Source: a virus
Lineage: Duplodnaviria > Caudoviricetes
DNA length: 57,358 bases
IMG/VR virus record: IMGVR_UViG_3300015189_000004
Coordinates: 1-57,358 of that record
Direction: 5' to 3' (one strand)
Shown here: positions 2,875 to 41,560 of the stretch, piece by piece
How positions within the stretch are numbered: position 1 is the stretch's first letter
Layout: every line of letters begins with the position of its first letter
Notes under the pieces: model-generated
Database searches by the model: none
What the model saw: the letters and a program-made list of their open reading frames with translations, nothing else
Told to the model about the DNA's origin: nothing
Position numbers and translations under genes: made by a program

Positions 2875-3374
2875 GTGATGTTGTCCTTGCCCACTACGGG
2901 AAGAAGGGCATGCACTGGGGTGTTCGGCGTGCAAGCAAGTACTCCGATGGCCCAAAGGGTACAAACAACCCGGTAGTCACGAAAGAACGACCCGGACACA
3001 AGGTCACTGCCAAAGGAGGGGAGAATCAGCCAGCGTCTGCGGACGCAAAGGCTATTGCTATCTCTCGGCAGAAGGCGAAGAAGAGTTCCACAGACTCTCT
3101 TTCAACGAAGGACCTTCAGGACCTCGTCAATCGGATGAATCTTGAGCAGCAGTACTCTCGGCTGACTCCAGACTCGAGGTCGACGAAGGGTAAGAAGTTT
3201 GCCGGCAAGTTTGTGGGTCAGATAGCCAAAGAGCAGCTTCCAAAGCTTGCTGTTATCGGGCTCAAGAAGGCAACCGCCGGTATTGACGACCCTCGTGTCA
3301 ACACCGCGATGAAAGTTGCGGAAGCCATGGCCTCTGCCGGCGGAAACATGGCAGGAAAGAAGAAGAACAAGTAG
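2871..3374 (+). CDS. Basic protein with N-terminal HYGKKGMHWGVRR motif (candidate internal virion protein)
   Basis: GTG start overlapping the upstream stop; motif shared with 5239 and 5649. Confidence 0.7.
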   Translation: MSDVVLAHYGKKGMHWGVRRASKYSDGPKGTNNPVVTKERPGHKVTAKGGENQPASADAKAIAISRQKAKKSSTDSLSTKDLQDLVNRMNLEQQYSRLTPDSRSTKGKKFAGKFVGQIAKEQLPKLAVIGLKKATAGIDDPRVNTAMKVAEAMASAGGNMAGKKKNK

Positions 3375-10193: not shown

Positions 10194-11084
10194 ATGACCA
10201 AGCTTCTTTGGGATCAGGTCGGTGAGCGGACGTATGAAACCGGTGTCGACCAGGGTGTTCTCTACATCCCGAACGCCGGCGTCTACGACAATGGCTATGC
10301 ATGGAACGGCCTCACGACCGTCACGGAGTCACCGTCCGGAGCAGAGGCCAAGCCTCTGTATGCCGACAACATCAAGTACCTGAACCTCATCTCGGCCGAA
10401 GAGTTCGGCGCGACGATCGAGGCTTTCACGTACCCGAGTCAGTTCTCGCAGTGCGACGGCACGCAGCAGCCCCAGCCCGGGGTTTCTGTCGGCCAGCAGT
10501 CTCGGAAGTCCTTCGGGCTGTCCTACCGGACCAAGCTCGGGAACGACGTCTCGGCAACCGACTACGGCTACAAGCTCCACCTGATCTACGGAGCCATCGC
10601 GGCCCCGTCAGAGCGAGCGTACGCCACGGTCAACGACTCTCCTGAGGCGCTGGCTTTCAGTTGGTCTGTGTCGACCAACCCGGTCGCCGTGGCAAACCTC
10701 AAGCCGACGGCAATTCTGACGATCGACTCGTCGAAGGTCACCCCGGCCAACCTGGTGGCGCTGCAGGACGCTCTCTATGGGACGCCCGGCACCAACCCGC
10801 GGCTTCCGCTTCCGGACGAGGTCATCGGCATGTTCGCCGGTGCTCAGACTCTGGTCACTCCGACGCCTCCGACCGCAACCACGGCCGGCGTCATCACCAT
10901 CCCGACCGTCACTGGTGTCACCTACCGTCGTGGAGACACGAATGCGGTTGTCACGAGCGGTGCCACCGTTCAGGTTCCTGGCGCCATCGGTCAGTCCTTG
11001 GTCATCAAGGCTGTCCCGGCTTCCGGCACCTACGCGTTCAACGTGAACGTTGACGACGACTGGAGCTTCACCAAGACGGTCTGA
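10194..11084 (+). CDS. Major tail protein (phi13-like) with C-terminal Ig-like domain
   Basis: WDQVGERTYETGVDQGVLY, AWNGLT, YADNIKY, YKLHLIY; codon usage like the capsid gene. Confidence 0.88.
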   Translation: MTKLLWDQVGERTYETGVDQGVLYIPNAGVYDNGYAWNGLTTVTESPSGAEAKPLYADNIKYLNLISAEEFGATIEAFTYPSQFSQCDGTQQPQPGVSVGQQSRKSFGLSYRTKLGNDVSATDYGYKLHLIYGAIAAPSERAYATVNDSPEALAFSWSVSTNPVAVANLKPTAILTIDSSKVTPANLVALQDALYGTPGTNPRLPLPDEVIGMFAGAQTLVTPTPPTATTAGVITIPTVTGVTYRRGDTNAVVTSGATVQVPGAIGQSLVIKAVPASGTYAFNVNVDDDWSFTKTV

Positions 11085-27139: not shown

Positions 27140-27171
27140 TCGCAAGAAAACCACGTCCTATAATGAGACCC
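27140..27171 (+). promoter_or_regulatory. Promoter motif, copy 4
   Basis: TCGCAAGAAAACCACGTCCTATAATGAGACCC. Confidence 0.85.
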
Positions 27172-27247
27172 ATAACGCCTACCATCCTATCAACGGAGAA
27201 ACGGCTGACCACATAGTGGAAACCGCTAAAGCGGAATGGTATCTCAT
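27163..27247 (+). ncRNA. Candidate small RNA A
   Basis: ATGAGACCCAT...ATGGTATCTCAT terminal stem with a bulge; inner A-CCAC-ATA-GTGG-A and A-CCGC-TAAA-GCGG-A hairpins; then TTTTCTGCC. Confidence 0.6.
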
Positions 27248-27310
27248 TTTTCTGCCTCATCCTTCTAGAATCCTCTAGCAGGCAATTGTGAAACTAGTAA
27301 GGAGATAGGC

Positions 27311-27703
27311 ATGAACATGGACCAGCGTGCGAAGATCAAGGACCACTTCCGTGAGAACAAGAACGTGTATATCGCTGCTGGTGTTGGCGTCCTCGTCGGT
27401 GCTGCCGGCTGTGTCTTCCTGAAAGATTCATCCACACTTGTCTCGATTCGAGAGACTCTGAACTTCAAGTGGAAATCGCCGACGACAAATGTTGTTCAGT
27501 TGATCATTCCGCCACTTGGTGATGCTGGGAATGTTGTTCAGTGTGTTGAAACAGGAACGATCTATGCGAGTCAAGGTCAAGCAGCACGAGAGCTTGGTGT
27601 CCGTGCTACGGACGTCTCGAAGCATATGCATGGTGTTCAAGAGCACGTCGCTGGATTGCATCTAAAGCTTCTAGGCAAGGCTGGCGAACCACTCGCAGGA
27701 TAA
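27311..27703 (+). CDS. Membrane-anchored protein with C-terminal NUMOD1-like HTH (paralogue of 39869)
   Basis: TM segment VYIAAGVGVLVGAAGCVFL, FKWKSPTTN, VQCVETGTIYASQGQAARELGV; the C-terminus resembles that of the HNH at 34523. Confidence 0.75.
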   Translation: MNMDQRAKIKDHFRENKNVYIAAGVGVLVGAAGCVFLKDSSTLVSIRETLNFKWKSPTTNVVQLIIPPLGDAGNVVQCVETGTIYASQGQAARELGVRATDVSKHMHGVQEHVAGLHLKLLGKAGEPLAG

Positions 27704-27724
27704 ACCCGCCCTATAATGAGAACC
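27693..27724 (+). promoter_or_regulatory. Promoter motif, copy 5 (overlaps the 27311 stop codon)
   Basis: TCGCAGGATAAACCCGCCCTATAATGAGAACC. Confidence 0.85.
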
Positions 27725-27795
27725 ACACTACCGGTCACCCGCTTACGGGAGGCTGACTACCCGCTTACGGGAAGTTGAAAAGTAGTGTGGTTCTC
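27716..27795 (+). ncRNA. Candidate small RNA B (2 x ACCCGCTTACGGGA)
   Basis: Perfect 14-bp terminal stem 27718-27731/27782-27795; repeats at 27737 and 27759 with G.U-containing lower stems. Confidence 0.75.
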
Positions 27796-27803
27796 CTTTT
27801 GCC

Positions 27804-27835
27804 ACGCAGGAAAACCACACCCTATAATGAGAACC
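27804..27835 (+). promoter_or_regulatory. Promoter motif, copy 6
   Basis: ACGCAGGAAAACCACACCCTATAATGAGAACC. Confidence 0.85.
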
Positions 27836-27935
27836 TAGTATCTGGATCACCCGATAAGGGAGATCTGAATGGCCACCCGATAAGGGAGACCTACTTGCCA
27901 CCCGATAAGGGAGACAACAGATACTAGGTTCTCAT
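27827..27935 (+). ncRNA. Candidate small RNA C (3 x CACCCGATAAGGGAGA)
   Basis: Perfect 18-bp terminal stem 27827-27844/27918-27935; repeats at 27848, 27874 and 27899 with covarying flanks. Confidence 0.78.
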
Positions 27936-27967
27936 TTTTCTGCCTAAACTCAACGAAAGGAATTGTT

Positions 27968-28090
27968 ATGTACTCACAGTGCAGAAAGCGTTACGGATTC
28001 TGGAACTTCATCGGAGACGTCCTCATGACGTGTCTCACAAGTGGGCTCTGGCTCATCTGGATCTTCGTTCGTGAGATGCGTCGTCGCTGA
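27968..28090 (+). CDS. Small membrane protein (40 aa)
   Basis: Read by eye: GAAAGGA RBS, then MYSQCRKRYGFWNFIGDVLMTCLTSGLWLIWIFVREMRRR. Confidence 0.65.
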   Translation: MYSQCRKRYGFWNFIGDVLMTCLTSGLWLIWIFVREMRRR

Positions 28091-28091
28091 C

Positions 28092-39137: not shown

Positions 39138-39410
39138 ATGGACGCACCGTTTCAGGTCATTGCCCGAACGATCGTCATGGAGTACGTCAACGAGCACCTC
39201 GAGAAGACGGACAACGTCACGGCTGGTCTCGACGACATCTACGTGGTCTGGTGGTCCAAGACACTCCAGAACTGGAAGGCGATGGTCAGCACCACGCTTC
39301 CCGACGGGATGTACTACGAGGTCACCCACAACGGTGACAAGAACGAGACATATCTCGACACGTACAAGAAGTTTGACAACATCGTCATTTCGGACCTGAA
39401 CCATGTGTGA
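39138..39410 (+). CDS. Small conserved phage protein (DUF6275-like)
   Basis: VVWWSKTLQNWKAMVST...DGMYYEVTHNGDKNETYLDTYKK. Family name recalled. Confidence 0.6.
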   Translation: MDAPFQVIARTIVMEYVNEHLEKTDNVTAGLDDIYVVWWSKTLQNWKAMVSTTLPDGMYYEVTHNGDKNETYLDTYKKFDNIVISDLNHV

Positions 39411-39868
39411 CTGCGAAGAGCGAATCCATGAAGGCATTCATTGCGGTAGCCCGGCGTGTGAGTGTCATCCATCCGAGTTTGTCTACATGAGTATCTCATT
39501 TCCTCGTGTAGGTCGAGAGACGGCCAAGGCGCTCGTCTTGACTCTCACAGAGGCGGCGGGTCTTATCCCGTACAACGTGTTCTTCGAGGCGTCGATCGAC
39601 GAAGACGAGGACAACGATGGCTGACGTCGTCGAGCTTCCGGACCCAGTCTGTCACTGTCAGGGACGCGATCACCCGAAGATCAGGTGTGGTAGTGAGCAT
39701 TGCCACTGTCACTGCGACCCGCACCGCTAGCGTTACCCCACGGCTCTTGGTCAAGGGGTTTGTGTTCTCTTGGGACTACCAGCGAACAATCATGGTAGAG
39801 ATTGAGATCACAGACCCCTTGGCCATCGCCGAAATTCAGCGAGACCTCATAACAAAGAAGGAGGCTTT

Positions 39869-40258
39869 ATGAAACACGAGATCAAGAAACATTTCCAAGA
39901 GAACAAACGAGTGTATCTCGTGGGTGCAGGGTGTCTTGTTGTTGGGGTTGCTGGAGCACTTATGCTTACGCGTAGCGATGCTCGAGTGACGGTAGACGCT
40001 TGGAAGTTCATCGAGTTCAAATGGAAGTCCCCAACGACAAACAACATAATGCAAACGGTCATGGAACGTCGAGGGCACCCGGGCTATGTTGTTCGATGTA
40101 TTGAGACTGGCAAGAAGTTTGCAAGCCAAAACCAAGCTGCTTCTGAAATGGGGCTAAACGCGGGGAATCTTTGTTCGCATTTGAACGGTAAGTATGCTCA
40201 CGTTCAAGGATTCACGTTTGAACGTCTTGGCGAAGCCATTGCCTCCGGGGTCGCATAA
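39869..40258 (+). CDS. Membrane-anchored protein with C-terminal NUMOD1-like HTH (paralogue of 27311)
   Basis: IKKHFQENKRVYLVGAGCLVVG...FKWKSPTTN...VRCIETGKKFASQNQAASEMG...HVQGFTFERLGE. Confidence 0.78.
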   Translation: MKHEIKKHFQENKRVYLVGAGCLVVGVAGALMLTRSDARVTVDAWKFIEFKWKSPTTNNIMQTVMERRGHPGYVVRCIETGKKFASQNQAASEMGLNAGNLCSHLNGKYAHVQGFTFERLGEAIASGVA

Positions 40259-40281
40259 AATACACGCTCTATAATGAGACC
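40251..40281 (+). promoter_or_regulatory. Promoter motif, copy 9 (overlaps the 39869 stop codon)
   Basis: TCGCATAAAATACACGCTCTATAATGAGACC. Confidence 0.85.
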
Positions 40282-40408
40282 AACCACTGGACGCCCGTTA
40301 AGGGTATCCGACAATGGACGCCCGTTAAGGGTATCCGACAATGGACGCCCGTTAAGGGTATCCAATACCAGACGCCCGTTAAGGGTATCGAAAAGTGGTT
40401 GGTCTCAT
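40274..40408 (+). ncRNA. Candidate small RNA D (4 x GACGCCCGTTAAGGGTATC, 27-nt period)
   Basis: Perfect 15-bp terminal stem 40274-40288/40394-40408; repeats at 40290, 40317, 40344 and 40371. Confidence 0.78.
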
Positions 40409-40410
40409 TT

Positions 40411-40495
40411 GAACCCATAACGTATAGGAGACCCCAGAAGGGGACACCTTTGCCGGAGACCCCAGAAGGGGACACTGGTAGTTATGGGTTCTCAT
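40411..40495 (+). ncRNA. Candidate small RNA E (2 x GGAGACCCCAGAAGGGGACAC)
   Basis: 11-bp stem GAACCCATAAC/GTTATGGGTTC; repeats at 40427 and 40455; ends in TCTCAT. Confidence 0.72.
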
Positions 40496-40592
40496 AAACA
40501 AGATTAGAACTCCAATCAACGAGTCACCCCTTTAGGGGAGGCCATGTTATGCACTGCAGGCTTGGGTTGTACACGGATTCTTGTTTTCTCAT
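40496..40592 (+). ncRNA. Candidate small RNA F (single GTC-A-CCCC-TTTA-GGGG-A-GGC hairpin)
   Basis: AAACAAGA/TCTTGTTT stem; ends in TCTCAT followed by TTCTGCTT. Confidence 0.55.
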
Positions 40593-40624
40593 TTCTGCTT
40601 TCAAACAAAGAAGGAGTAGCAATT

Positions 40625-41050
40625 GTGCAGACATTTCTGCCATACGAAAGCTTCGAGGAGTCAGCACGAGTTCTTGACCGTCAGCGCTTAGGCAAGCAAC
40701 GTGTTGAGGGTTACCAAATCCTCAAGGCACTTGTCCTAGGGACGGGATGGATTCATCATCCGGCAACAAAGCAGTGGGCTGGCCACGAGTTCTGGTTAGT
40801 GGACTACATTCTCGTCATGATCGACGAGTGGACACGTCGAGGCTACAAGGACTCCGTCCGGGACAAGATCGATGCTCTTCTTCTGGAGTATCCACTTCCT
40901 TTGTGTTCTCGTCCAGACTGGCTTGGGTATGAGCCATACCACGCATCACACCGAGCAAACCTTCTTCGTAAGGATCAGTTCTACTACGGTCAGTTCGGAT
41001 GGACCGAAGATTCAACCACGCCATATTACTGGCCATCGCACAACAACTAA
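40625..41050 (+). CDS. Pyrimidine-dimer DNA glycosylase/endonuclease V-like protein (MSMEG_6728 family)
   Basis: MQTFLPY...LDRQRLGKQRVE..QIL...HHPA..QW...HASHRANLLRKD; AAGGAG RBS before GTG. Confidence 0.8.
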   Translation: MQTFLPYESFEESARVLDRQRLGKQRVEGYQILKALVLGTGWIHHPATKQWAGHEFWLVDYILVMIDEWTRRGYKDSVRDKIDALLLEYPLPLCSRPDWLGYEPYHASHRANLLRKDQFYYGQFGWTEDSTTPYYWPSHNN

Positions 41051-41062
41051 GGAGCACTAAAT

Positions 41063-41560
41063 ATGGCTTACAACGACAACAACGTTCTCATGGAGGACGT
41101 TCGTATCATCTTCCGAAACTTCGCTGGCAAGGAGGGGATGTACAACCGAGAAGGCGACCGCAACTTCGCAGTTCTCCTCGATCCTCAGCTCGCGGAAGCG
41201 ATGTCCAAGGACGGCTGGAACGTCAAGACCCTCAAGGCGCGAGAAGAGGAGGACGAGCCTCAGGCATATCTGCAGATCTCGGTCAACTTCAAGGGCCGTC
41301 CGCCGCAGATCGTCATGATCACCTCTCGTGGTCGCAACCATCTCGGTGAAGACGAGGTCGAGCTTCTGGACTGGGCAGACATCCGTCAGACGGACCTGAT
41401 CATCCGGCCCTACGAGTGGGCTGTCAACGGCAAGACTGGAGTCAAGGCATATCTCCAGTCGATCTACGTGACCATCGAGGAAGACGCACTGCAGCTCAAG
41501 TACGCCGATGTGCAGGACATCCAGTCTCGCAGCGGACGTACCGACGACCGGGAGGACTGA
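41063..41560 (+). CDS. Single-stranded DNA-binding protein
   Basis: IIFRNFAG...YNREGDRNF and GVKAYL motifs, acidic C-terminus, AAGGAG RBS. Confidence 0.65.
   Translation: MAYNDNNVLMEDVRIIFRNFAGKEGMYNREGDRNFAVLLDPQLAEAMSKDGWNVKTLKAREEEDEPQAYLQISVNFKGRPPQIVMITSRGRNHLGEDEVELLDWADIRQTDLIIRPYEWAVNGKTGVKAYLQSIYVTIEEDALQLKYADVQDIQSRSGRTDDRED

Follow-up and report, generated by a model that had tools for sequence, protein, structure and literature searches.

The complete virus record analyzed here (IMGVR_UViG_3300015189_000004; 57,358 bases, hereafter the window) is the genome of a siphovirus-like phage with about 52% G+C and nearly all of its genes on the plus strand. In a non-coding interval at 40273-40592 we found three consecutive, separately closed units, D, E and F, behind one promoter-like motif, together with a sister cluster of the same build, units A to C, at 27159-27945. 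Units D, C, B and E enclose four, three, two and two copies, respectively, of one short hairpin within a closing stem, and comparison with related phages reveals selection on the apical hairpins that is decoupled from the scaffold carrying them. We tentatively favor the interpretation that D, E, B and C are stand-alone, trans-acting small RNAs that function as multivalent decoys or sponges, with apical hairpins that would each bind a sequence-specific partner. We regard this as the leading explanation, although one that still falls short of being probable.

Two clusters of closed hairpin units

The 40-kb interval lies between a gene of 129 amino acids (aa), P2 (39869-40258), and a gene for a pyrimidine-dimer glycosylase (start at 40625). 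It contains the following features.

40251 to 40279, plus strand: promoter-like motif TCGCA-N14-TATAATGAGA, the last of eight exact TATAATGAGA copies in the genome (motif count and context)
40273 to 40409, plus strand: unit D, a perfect closing stem of 16 base pairs (bp) (40273-40288 with 40394-40409; inverted repeat I8) around four hairpins
40290 to 40308, 40317 to 40335, 40344 to 40362 and 40371 to 40389, plus strand: the four unit D hairpins, copies of GACGCCCGTTAAGGGTATC (from sequence)
40390 to 40395, plus strand: GAAAAG junction from the last unit D hairpin to the 3' arm of the closing stem (from sequence)
40411 to 40495, plus strand: unit E, an 11-bp closing stem (40411-40421 with 40481-40491) followed by TCTCAT (from sequence)
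40427 to 40447 and 40455 to 40475, plus strand: the unit E hairpins, two exact copies, 21 nucleotides (nt) long, of GGAGACCCCAGAAGGGGACAC (repeat family D3)
40496 to 40592, plus strand: unit F, an 8-bp closing stem (40496-40503 with 40579-40586), an internal hairpin (40525-40541), TCTCAT and a T-rich tail (from sequence)

The unit D hairpin has a CCC/GGG apical stem with a GUUAA loop, and a C.A plus a G.U step lie beneath the stem. Tandem Repeats Finder describes the array at 40288-40389 as 3.8 copies with a period of 27, 93% matches and a score of 169. The unit E hairpin reads ACCCC-AGAA-GGGGAC, and no T-run follows the unit. The payload of unit F is a non-repetitive RNA, unlike those of D and E. 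All three units terminate in TCTCAT, the complement of the ATGAGA found at the start of unit D.

Folded as single RNA strands, D has a minimum free energy (MFE) of -67.6 kcal/mol (z = -6.84) and E one of -36.1 kcal/mol (z = -3.81), and in neither case did any of 200 shuffled sequences reach the native energy. The whole block at 40274-40600 (327 nt) has a z of -6.62 relative to shuffled sequence. The structured hairpin region that the initial annotation proposed here is real and goes far beyond chance, and its description of the hairpin RNAs as multivalent holds up; what escaped it was the division into three separately closed units behind a single promoter-like motif.

The sister cluster is made up as follows.

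27159 to 27250, plus strand: unit A, 5' of gene P1, with the promoter motif, a structured RNA that has TCTCAT at its end (27242-27247), and a T-run (z = -2.27)
27712 to 27798, plus strand: unit B, with the promoter motif and a 17-nt closing stem (27715-27731 with 27782-27798; inverted repeat I7, z = -7.03)
27737 to 27750 and 27759 to 27772, plus strand: the unit B hairpins, two copies of ACCCGCTTACGGGA (from sequence)
27775 to 27782, plus strand: TTGAAAAG in unit B (from sequence)
27823 to 27945, plus strand: unit C, with the promoter motif, a perfect 19-nt closing stem (27826-27844 with 27918-27936; inverted repeat I4, z = -6.47) and a T-run
27848 to 27863, 27874 to 27889 and 27899 to 27914, plus strand: the unit C hairpins, three copies of CACCCGATAAGGGAGA (from sequence)

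As single RNA strands, B and C are likewise more stable than each of their 200 shuffles. Their closing stems and that of D are among the longest near-perfect inverted repeats of the genome (C, 19 nt, 100%; B, 17 nt, 94%; D, 16 nt, 100%). Counted from ATGAGA onward, with the pairing arm sought within 45-360 nt, gapless Watson-Crick partners number 13 of 14 in B and 14 of 14 in both C and D; at 44 promoters of the same type that drive open reading frames (ORFs), the control gave 5 to 11. The units are non-coding: unit C meets a stop at codon 4, and no Shine-Dalgarno sequence with a start codon occurs within 35 nt of the motif. Folds that are far more stable than shuffled sequence, together with closing stems far longer than at the 44 coding-type promoters, support the view that these are genes for structured RNAs. 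Over the units as a whole, conserved cores of 14-21 nt are separated by linkers of 6-9 nt, giving a copy spacing of 22-28 nt, and the loops of the repeated hairpins in the two clusters are GUUAA, AGAA, GAUAA and CUUA.

The promoter-like motif and the arrangement of the units

The eight exact copies of TATAATGAGA are all on the plus strand and compare with a chance mean of 1.93; none of 100 shuffles reached eight. Every copy is preceded by TCGCA-N14. Four lead into a conserved leader with a Shine-Dalgarno sequence and an ORF, and units A, B, C and D come after the remaining four; there TATAATGAGA lies 4 nt 5' of the 5' arm of the closing stem. In related phages the motif also occurs in the forward direction only (Petito, 11; Odesza, 10; Qui, 21; ReqiPepy6, 12), and the reversed-pattern control gave no match. 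For the cluster DJ phages Vardy and Conley, an intergenic motif of 43-50 bp with a TATAAT -10 box is in print (PMC9671010; PMC10868162), and the notes on the motif in these two reports make no mention of non-coding RNAs.

Four one-gene cassettes in an early-looking region of the window (25864, 26347, 29031, 30615) each have the promoter motif, a near-identical leader and a hairpin terminator of their own. This leader reads GAGACCCCTAYGAAAGGA in related phages, and the unit E hairpin opens with the same GAGACCCC as the leader.

The position of the motif copies bears on an explanation that differs from the one we favor. The copy at 40270 is the final TATAATGAGA ahead of about 17 kb of replication genes, and the gene immediately downstream has no promoter motif of its own:

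40625 to 41050, plus strand: gene of the pyrimidine-dimer DNA glycosylase family (Pfam PF03013, E = 1.4e-22)

Because no TATAATGAGA occurs after 40270, this gene would be reached by read-through of D-E-F. The units could therefore form a cis-acting leader, in which a factor on the repeated hairpins, or the RNA itself, sets the choice between a stop at the closing stem and U-tail and read-through, by attenuation or by processive antitermination of the nut/boxB or put kind. The ORFs after units A, C and F have no promoter motif of their own, and U-runs are missing from D and E, whereas the final unit in each cluster does have a T-rich tail. Hairpins with a CCC/GGG stem and a GAUAA or GUUAA loop also have what we take to be the general look of boxB-type pentaloop hairpins. 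Related phages speak against a leader, for their units often stand directly before another promoter motif, with nothing to read through, and our ORF scan, made with no search for boxA, gave no clear N-like arginine-rich protein. To our knowledge, two- to four-fold repetition of a hairpin is not a feature of the cis-acting antitermination RNAs. We consider a cis leader a serious rival for this window and a poorer fit to the related phages, and overall rather unlikely.

Hairpin modules are exchanged between related phages

The DNA primase/polymerase of the phage (1,261 aa) is about 64% identical to its counterparts in the Rhodococcus phages ReqiPoco6 and ReqiPepy6 and in Gordonia cluster DJ (Petito, Tanis, Odesza). 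The phage collection contains no near-identical record, and megablast with 39800-41100 gave no match in it; with blastn, the interval 40259-40625 matched only the unit F region of Odesza (E = 2e-3).

Each hairpin cluster follows one of two paralogous genes, with P2 directly 5' of D-E-F and P1 5' of units B and C.

27311 to 27703, plus strand: gene P1, paralog of P2 (PF22083; phrog_27818)
39869 to 40258, plus strand: gene P2, 129 aa; hydrophobic helix at the N terminus, NUMOD-like DNA-binding domain at the C terminus (Pfam PF22083, E = 8.1e-9; phrog_27818, function unknown)

The two proteins, both with the hydrophobic helix and the NUMOD-like domain, are 43% identical over 120 aa, and the profile of their family weakly matches the C-terminal domain of the I-HmuI structure 1u3e (E = 0.036). 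P2 alone retrieved no relatives from the viral contigs, and a profile search retrieved eight loci. Our comparison covered 18 copies of the NUMOD-like gene, taken from nine named phages and six viral contigs as well as from the window. In 17 of these 18, the promoter-like motif comes 5-21 nt after the stop codon and leads into a closed non-coding unit, locus L012 being the exception. Phages of Gordonia, Rhodococcus and Arthrobacter have this layout, and so do viral contigs. The closest relative of P2 is the protein of contig L198 (55% identical), and both genes adjoin D-type hairpins.

The payloads vary widely among the related phages. Among them are other hairpins in two or three copies (GTCATTGCGAC, CCACCCGCCTATCGGGAGAC and GGAAGCATTGCGCATCC are examples), a longer hairpin of 28 nt in Qui, and unit F-like RNAs. 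In one cassette of ReqiPepy6 the motif (with one base different), a closing stem and a T-run surround a tRNA (RF00005, 42 bits; tRNA-Ala by ARAGORN), which suggests that cassettes of this build serve generally for the expression of small stable RNAs. Many units in these phages run straight into the next promoter motif, which indicates that they are stand-alone transcription units.

Of special interest is a viral contig in which unit 3 of locus L010 is the ortholog of unit C, next to a protein 42% identical to P1. The closing stems of the two differ by one compensatory change (T to C on one arm, A to G on the other), and the scaffold is identical at 74 of 82 positions (90%), with the same linkers and hairpin bases. 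The apical nine nucleotides, however, agree at only 11 of 27 positions, and the same replacement is found in all three copies. Unit 2 of L010 presents the reverse case: its three apical modules are identical to those of unit C (27/27) on a scaffold that matches at 43 of 66 positions (65%), and the stem beneath the apical module is altered in a compensatory way, G.U pairs included. A pattern scan with GGTTCTCATTTTTCTGCC returned one viral and 27 metagenome loci, among which only L048 and L069 were relevant, both from the same virus as L010; the other 26 have no promoter motif and look like chance matches.

Similar exchange is seen for other hairpin types. The D-type hairpin occurs twice in the L198 contig inside an unrelated closing stem. 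Hairpins with GTCATTGCGAC are common to L010 and the Gordonia phages Pherobrine and Conley, whose neighboring proteins are 36-37% identical to that of L010. A hairpin with a UUAUG loop, present in L010, recurs in the Rhodococcus phage ReqiPepy6, where its closing pair has changed in a compensatory way from G-C to U-A. For unit F, the alignment with Odesza, Tanis, Pherobrine and ReqiPepy6 gave 32 pairs in RNAalifold, 15 of them with changes on both sides. These compensatory changes, in the closing stem of unit C and in the F family, indicate that pairing is maintained. The identity of the copies within a unit, apical conservation on diverged scaffolds and wholesale apical replacement in a conserved scaffold together identify the apical hairpin as the functional, specificity-bearing part, and the same three observations imply that several identical copies per RNA are needed.

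A plainer account would take the units as structural modules with no specific ligand, that is, as terminators, RNase-processing sites or stabilizers of mRNA 3' or 5' ends, and the inner hairpins as by-products of tandem duplication. A closing stem with a U-tail does have the form of an intrinsic terminator, no separate terminator lies between the stop codons of P1 and P2 and the units, and D is a near-perfect 27-nt tandem array. Neutral duplication nevertheless fails to explain 27/27 apical identity on a 65%-identical scaffold, or why, in a unit that is otherwise 90% identical, all three copies show one and the same apical replacement, so that we judge this account improbable.

The exchange of modules also bears on whether the repeats act as DNA, as iteron-like palindromic sites (an origin or a tether) to which a dimeric DNA-binding protein would bind, for instance the membrane-anchored NUMOD-like protein encoded next to them. 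That protein combines a DNA-binding domain with a membrane helix, and a unit follows it in 17 of 18 cases. The unit D cluster sits between the genes for DNA polymerase and single-stranded DNA (ssDNA)-binding protein, and P2 and the L198 protein both stand beside D-type hairpins. Long closing stems kept by compensatory change, however, require a single strand, and the G.U steps and the systematic A.A mismatch break the symmetry of a duplex. Two or three unrelated hairpin types can follow one gene, and the hairpins do not track the protein tree: L010 has a hairpin in common with Pherobrine and Conley in spite of the distance between their proteins, while the proteins of Artorias and Avazak are 73% identical and their hairpins differ. 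The unit C scaffold, too, is far closer to its L010 ortholog than the neighboring proteins are to each other. Sites for a DNA-binding protein therefore seem to us very improbable.

Two other RNA elements were noted in the related phages. One, a structured and conserved RNA about 115 nt in length, is preceded by the same promoter motif in Odesza, Petito, ReqiPepy6 and Qui; Rfam gave no match for it, and the window lacks it. The other, a longer hairpin type, has GUG/CAC as its outer stem, an A-rich internal loop and AUCG/CGAU as its inner stem, and occurs in three copies each in a viral contig and in the Arthrobacter phage Qui. Their positions are as follows.

RNA of about 115 nt: L005, 1149-1265; L007, 1590-1705; L006, about 2820-2960; L008, about 10690-10810
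GUG/CAC-AUCG/CGAU hairpin: L016, about 2995-3140; L008, 9290-9455

A possible role as multivalent decoy RNAs

In the interpretation that we favor, each small RNA would be transcribed from the standard promoter-like motif of the phage, and its 5' end would pair with its 3' end to form the long closing stem, with a U-rich tail after the last unit of a cluster. The junction inside the stem would then display two to four identical short hairpins, each with a G:C stem of 3-4 bp, an A/U-rich loop of 4-5 nt and a non-Watson-Crick step beneath the stem (A.A, or C.A plus G.U). Each hairpin type may be the binding site of one partner, for which an oligomeric RNA-binding protein from host or phage is the likeliest candidate, and the RNA may act in trans as a multivalent decoy or sponge, with different hairpin types addressing different partners and a presumed effect on infection. 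The hairpin motifs occur nowhere else in the phage except for one match with one mismatch inside a small ORF, which argues against operator sites on the phage's own mRNAs.

Several observations weigh against this interpretation. The arginine-rich or other candidate RNA-binding proteins that we looked for in a scan of the phage included no convincing case. Of the sequencing runs listed for the region, six were DNA runs with small shares of it, and none was an RNA run. The 13-14-mers of the C, D and E hairpins were each found in none of 41 sampled Actinomycetes genomes, so that a universal host RNA, if one is mimicked, would not be copied exactly. ORFs without a promoter motif after A, C and F, and the lack of a U-run in D and E, mean that D-E-F could be a cis-acting structured 5' leader. 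Finally, the complementarity of the closing stems in units D, C and B includes AATGAGA, the final bases of the 'TATAAT' box. Either the transcript starts inside the box, which is unusual for the sigma-A type, or the stem is complete only in RNA that reads through from the upstream gene. With a start set by a -10 box of the sigma-A type, AATGAGA would lie upstream of the transcript, and the true RNA ends are to that extent uncertain.

A bolder form of the same idea is an exchangeable library of multivalent RNA decoys, in which each hairpin type would neutralize a different RNA-binding immune or regulatory protein of the host. Modules would be swapped between scaffolds and phages much as protein anti-defense genes are in accessory islands, and the result would be an RNA-based counter-defense toolkit of actinophages, of which a CRISPR-repeat mimic (unit E) may be one member. 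We offer this as a speculation and hold it to be doubtful.

Tandem RNA repeats behind a promoter-like motif also recall the antitoxin RNAs of type III toxin-antitoxin systems, and a phage pseudo-antitoxin of this kind is known. The arrays could mimic such antitoxins, or they could be antisense RNAs with target-pairing loops. Here, however, the repeats are locked in a closing stem, no toxin-like gene adjoins them, known type III antitoxin repeats have periods longer than the 22-28 nt seen here, and no complementary target was found within the phage. The initial annotation had named both a decoy for another RNA-sensing defense protein and a mimic of type III antitoxins as alternatives to the CRISPR mimicry discussed below; the former, broadened to a decoy for an RNA-binding protein, has become our leading, if tentative, interpretation, and the latter we regard as highly unlikely.

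Resemblance of unit E to CRISPR repeats

The initial annotation explained the hairpins as RNA anti-CRISPRs that mimic host CRISPR repeats and titrate Cas6 or Cas7-type proteins. The strings that it quoted are present: ACCCCAGAAGGGGAC at 40431-40445 and 40459-40473, and GGGTATCGAAAAG at 40383-40395. A further one, CGGGAAGTTGAAAAG, also exists (27768-27782), in the sister cluster and hence outside the 40-kb interval to which it had been assigned. That the units are not CRISPR arrays was recognized correctly, since repeats of 28-37 nt with unique spacers of similar length would be expected in place of cores of 14-21 nt and linkers of 6-9 nt. The handle-like tail that it described after the final repeats corresponds to GAAAAG/TTGAAAAG, which is real and occurs in units D and B and in L198 (there as an internal linker); it stands once per unit at the junction and not after each copy.

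The likeness of the unit E hairpin to a type III-style repeat hairpin also held up. The repeats we compared were 13 natural ones, a set smaller than a full repeat library. The best case, which came from a set pre-selected for the E core, is a 36-nt repeat from a metagenome-assembled genome of a Peptoniphilaceae (Firmicute) that ends in AACCCCAGAAGGGGACGGAAAC / GGGGACGGAAAC; it has 15 contiguous nt in common with unit E (42% coverage, 30.2 bits). Past these 15 nt, unit E has ACAC where the Peptoniphilaceae repeat has a GGAAAC tag. For the direct repeat (DR) of M. tuberculosis, which the initial annotation cited for comparison, the GAGA-GGGGAC-GGAAAC part is borne out by the DRb primer (PMC7141659). 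Unit E has the stem in common with this repeat, and the flanks as far as DRb shows them, and differs from it in loop and tag.

Anti-CRISPR function fares less well. In the work on RNA anti-CRISPRs (Racr) and solitary repeat units (SRU), SRUFinder calls for identity and coverage of 90% or more each and for a bit score of at least 41.1 (PMC10651486), and coverage of any full repeat here is at most 42%, with a best score of 30.2 bits. A Racr is described there as a solitary repeat, with no further copies within 100 bp and with a promoter directly upstream. The units have two to four copies, with no repeat-end tag after each; a promoter-like motif, from which transcription would start, does lie directly upstream. 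By a rough estimate, about one 15-nt match is expected by chance, given about 3.6e5 15-mers in the library of 17,823 repeats (PMC10651486) and about 2,400 positions (about 1.2 kb, both strands).

The comparison with actinobacterial repeats, which the initial annotation had proposed, gave little in its favor. Arrays with repeats ending in CCC-N4-GGG + ATTGAAAC do exist in Actinobacteria, in 2 of 251 sampled genomes, and the five repeat variants match the window over only 7 nt. An ACCCC-N4-GGGGAC array was found in none of 401 sampled Actinomycetes genomes. Across prokaryotes, sampled at one genome for each species, 31 loci have two CCCCAGAAGGGG cores at array spacing, and several of these loci are true arrays; the only actinobacterial locus among the 31 is not an array. 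Two copies of CCCCAGAAGGGG at short spacing occur at no viral locus. The corresponding search with CCGATAAGG returned more than 119 viral loci, nearly all of them coding tandem repeats or chance matches.

Mimicry of host repeats has thus in its favor the 15-nt match of unit E, the stem and flanks in common with DRb, the upstream promoter-like motif and the existence of the actinobacterial CCC-N4-GGG arrays. It also has to accommodate four unrelated hairpin types in one phage and many more in its relatives, and hairpin types common to phages of different host genera. Odesza and Tanis, both with such units, were isolated on Gordonia terrae 3612, a strain reported to be CRISPR-free (PMC5043564). 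We consider CRISPR-repeat mimicry a weak proposal for unit E alone and weaker as a general explanation, and RNA anti-CRISPR function of the hairpins very unlikely.

Neighboring genes and other structured regions

Directly 5' of P2 lies a further structured region.

39729 to 39868, plus strand: strongly structured non-coding stretch (MFE -58.5 kcal/mol, z = -6.38, none of 200 shuffles as stable)

A structured non-coding stretch 5' of the NUMOD-like gene is kept in sequence between Odesza and ReqiPepy6 (L002, 1310-1440; L004, 1335-1450), and the stretch at the same position in the window has a different fold that is nevertheless very stable. In front of it (39403-39728) there are two small ORFs rich in Cys/His pairs, one of which encodes a 36-aa peptide with CHC...CHCHC; neither has a Pfam or PHROG match. 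In the sister cluster, unit C is followed, with no promoter motif in between, by a gene for a 40-aa membrane peptide (27969-28091) that ends in LWLIWIFVREMRRR and has close relatives after the RNA units of L016 and L014.

A 904-aa protein encoded at 54183-56897 matches phrog_4291 ('RNA-dependent RNA polymerase') end to end (E = 0). Its residues 511-517, GADFDGD, resemble the metal-binding motif of two-barrel RNA polymerases. Homologs were found in 250 phage records, where they are mostly annotated as helix-turn-helix or hypothetical proteins, and a relative from phage 1706 is among the listed YonO-like proteins (PMC2919709). Judged from its sequence, the 904-aa protein is probably a phage-encoded single-chain RNA polymerase. 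We considered TATAATGAGA as a promoter of this YonO-like polymerase and found no enrichment of the motif in three of four other polymerase-bearing phages (P1046, FP_oengus, Circum); the fourth, Scap1, has four forward copies with one mismatch, against none in the control.

Implications

Our search of the literature on the promoter motif, cluster DJ promoters, actinophage small RNAs and phage decoy RNAs found no description of these RNA units, only the notes on the motif in Vardy and Conley. If the units are decoys, then actinophages of a large group that has been widely isolated (Gordonia cluster DJ, the ReqiPepy6 group, the Arthrobacter phage Qui and uncultured relatives) would use small RNAs where others use small proteins, and the modular hairpins would be direct handles for finding the host or phage proteins that they bind. 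Even as cis regulators, they would constitute an undescribed class of structured RNA with clear covariation and module swapping. The compact expression cassette, a promoter motif with a closing stem, could also serve for the expression of RNA in Actinobacteria.

Comparison with known RNA systems

Rfam gave no match at the gathering score in the whole window, and scans of both clusters with E-values up to 10 had their best hit at 22.5 bits, the gathering score being 90. ARAGORN detected no tRNA gene in the window, and across 11 related loci the only Rfam match was the ReqiPepy6 tRNA.

In general design the units resemble CsrB and RsmZ, which are likewise small RNA genes with several stem-loops of the same motif that form multivalent sites, and here too a promoter-like motif and a terminal stem are present. 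They differ in lacking the GGA loop motif, in being encoded by a phage and in having several unrelated hairpin types per genome, and we know of no CsrA-type partner in these hosts.

The Racr RNAs (PMC10651486), as described there, are also phage small RNAs behind a promoter, and the short G:C hairpin of unit E resembles a type III-style repeat. The copies here, however, are not solitary, match a repeat over a 15-nt hairpin only, have no repeat-end tag and are enclosed in a closing stem, and many of the hairpin types are unlike repeats.

ToxI and its phage-borne decoy version, pseudo-ToxI, are tandem direct RNA repeats behind a promoter. Unlike them, the units have a shorter period, linkers that vary between copies in C and E, hairpins inside a closing stem and no adjacent toxin gene; what lies downstream is the pyrimidine-dimer glycosylase and the ssDNA-binding protein and, after unit C, the 40-aa membrane peptide.

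With boxB/nut of lambda and put of HK022 the units share short hairpins with G:C stems and A-rich pentaloops just 3' of a phage promoter and ahead of long operons. Here the hairpins are instead repeated two to four times, each unit has a closing stem of its own, and units of related phages often stand alone between two promoters.

The last likeness is to the tRNA and small stable RNA cassettes of phages, as in ReqiPepy6, where the motif, one base off, the closing stem and the T-run are placed around a tRNA; in the units described here, repeated mini-hairpins take the place of that tRNA.

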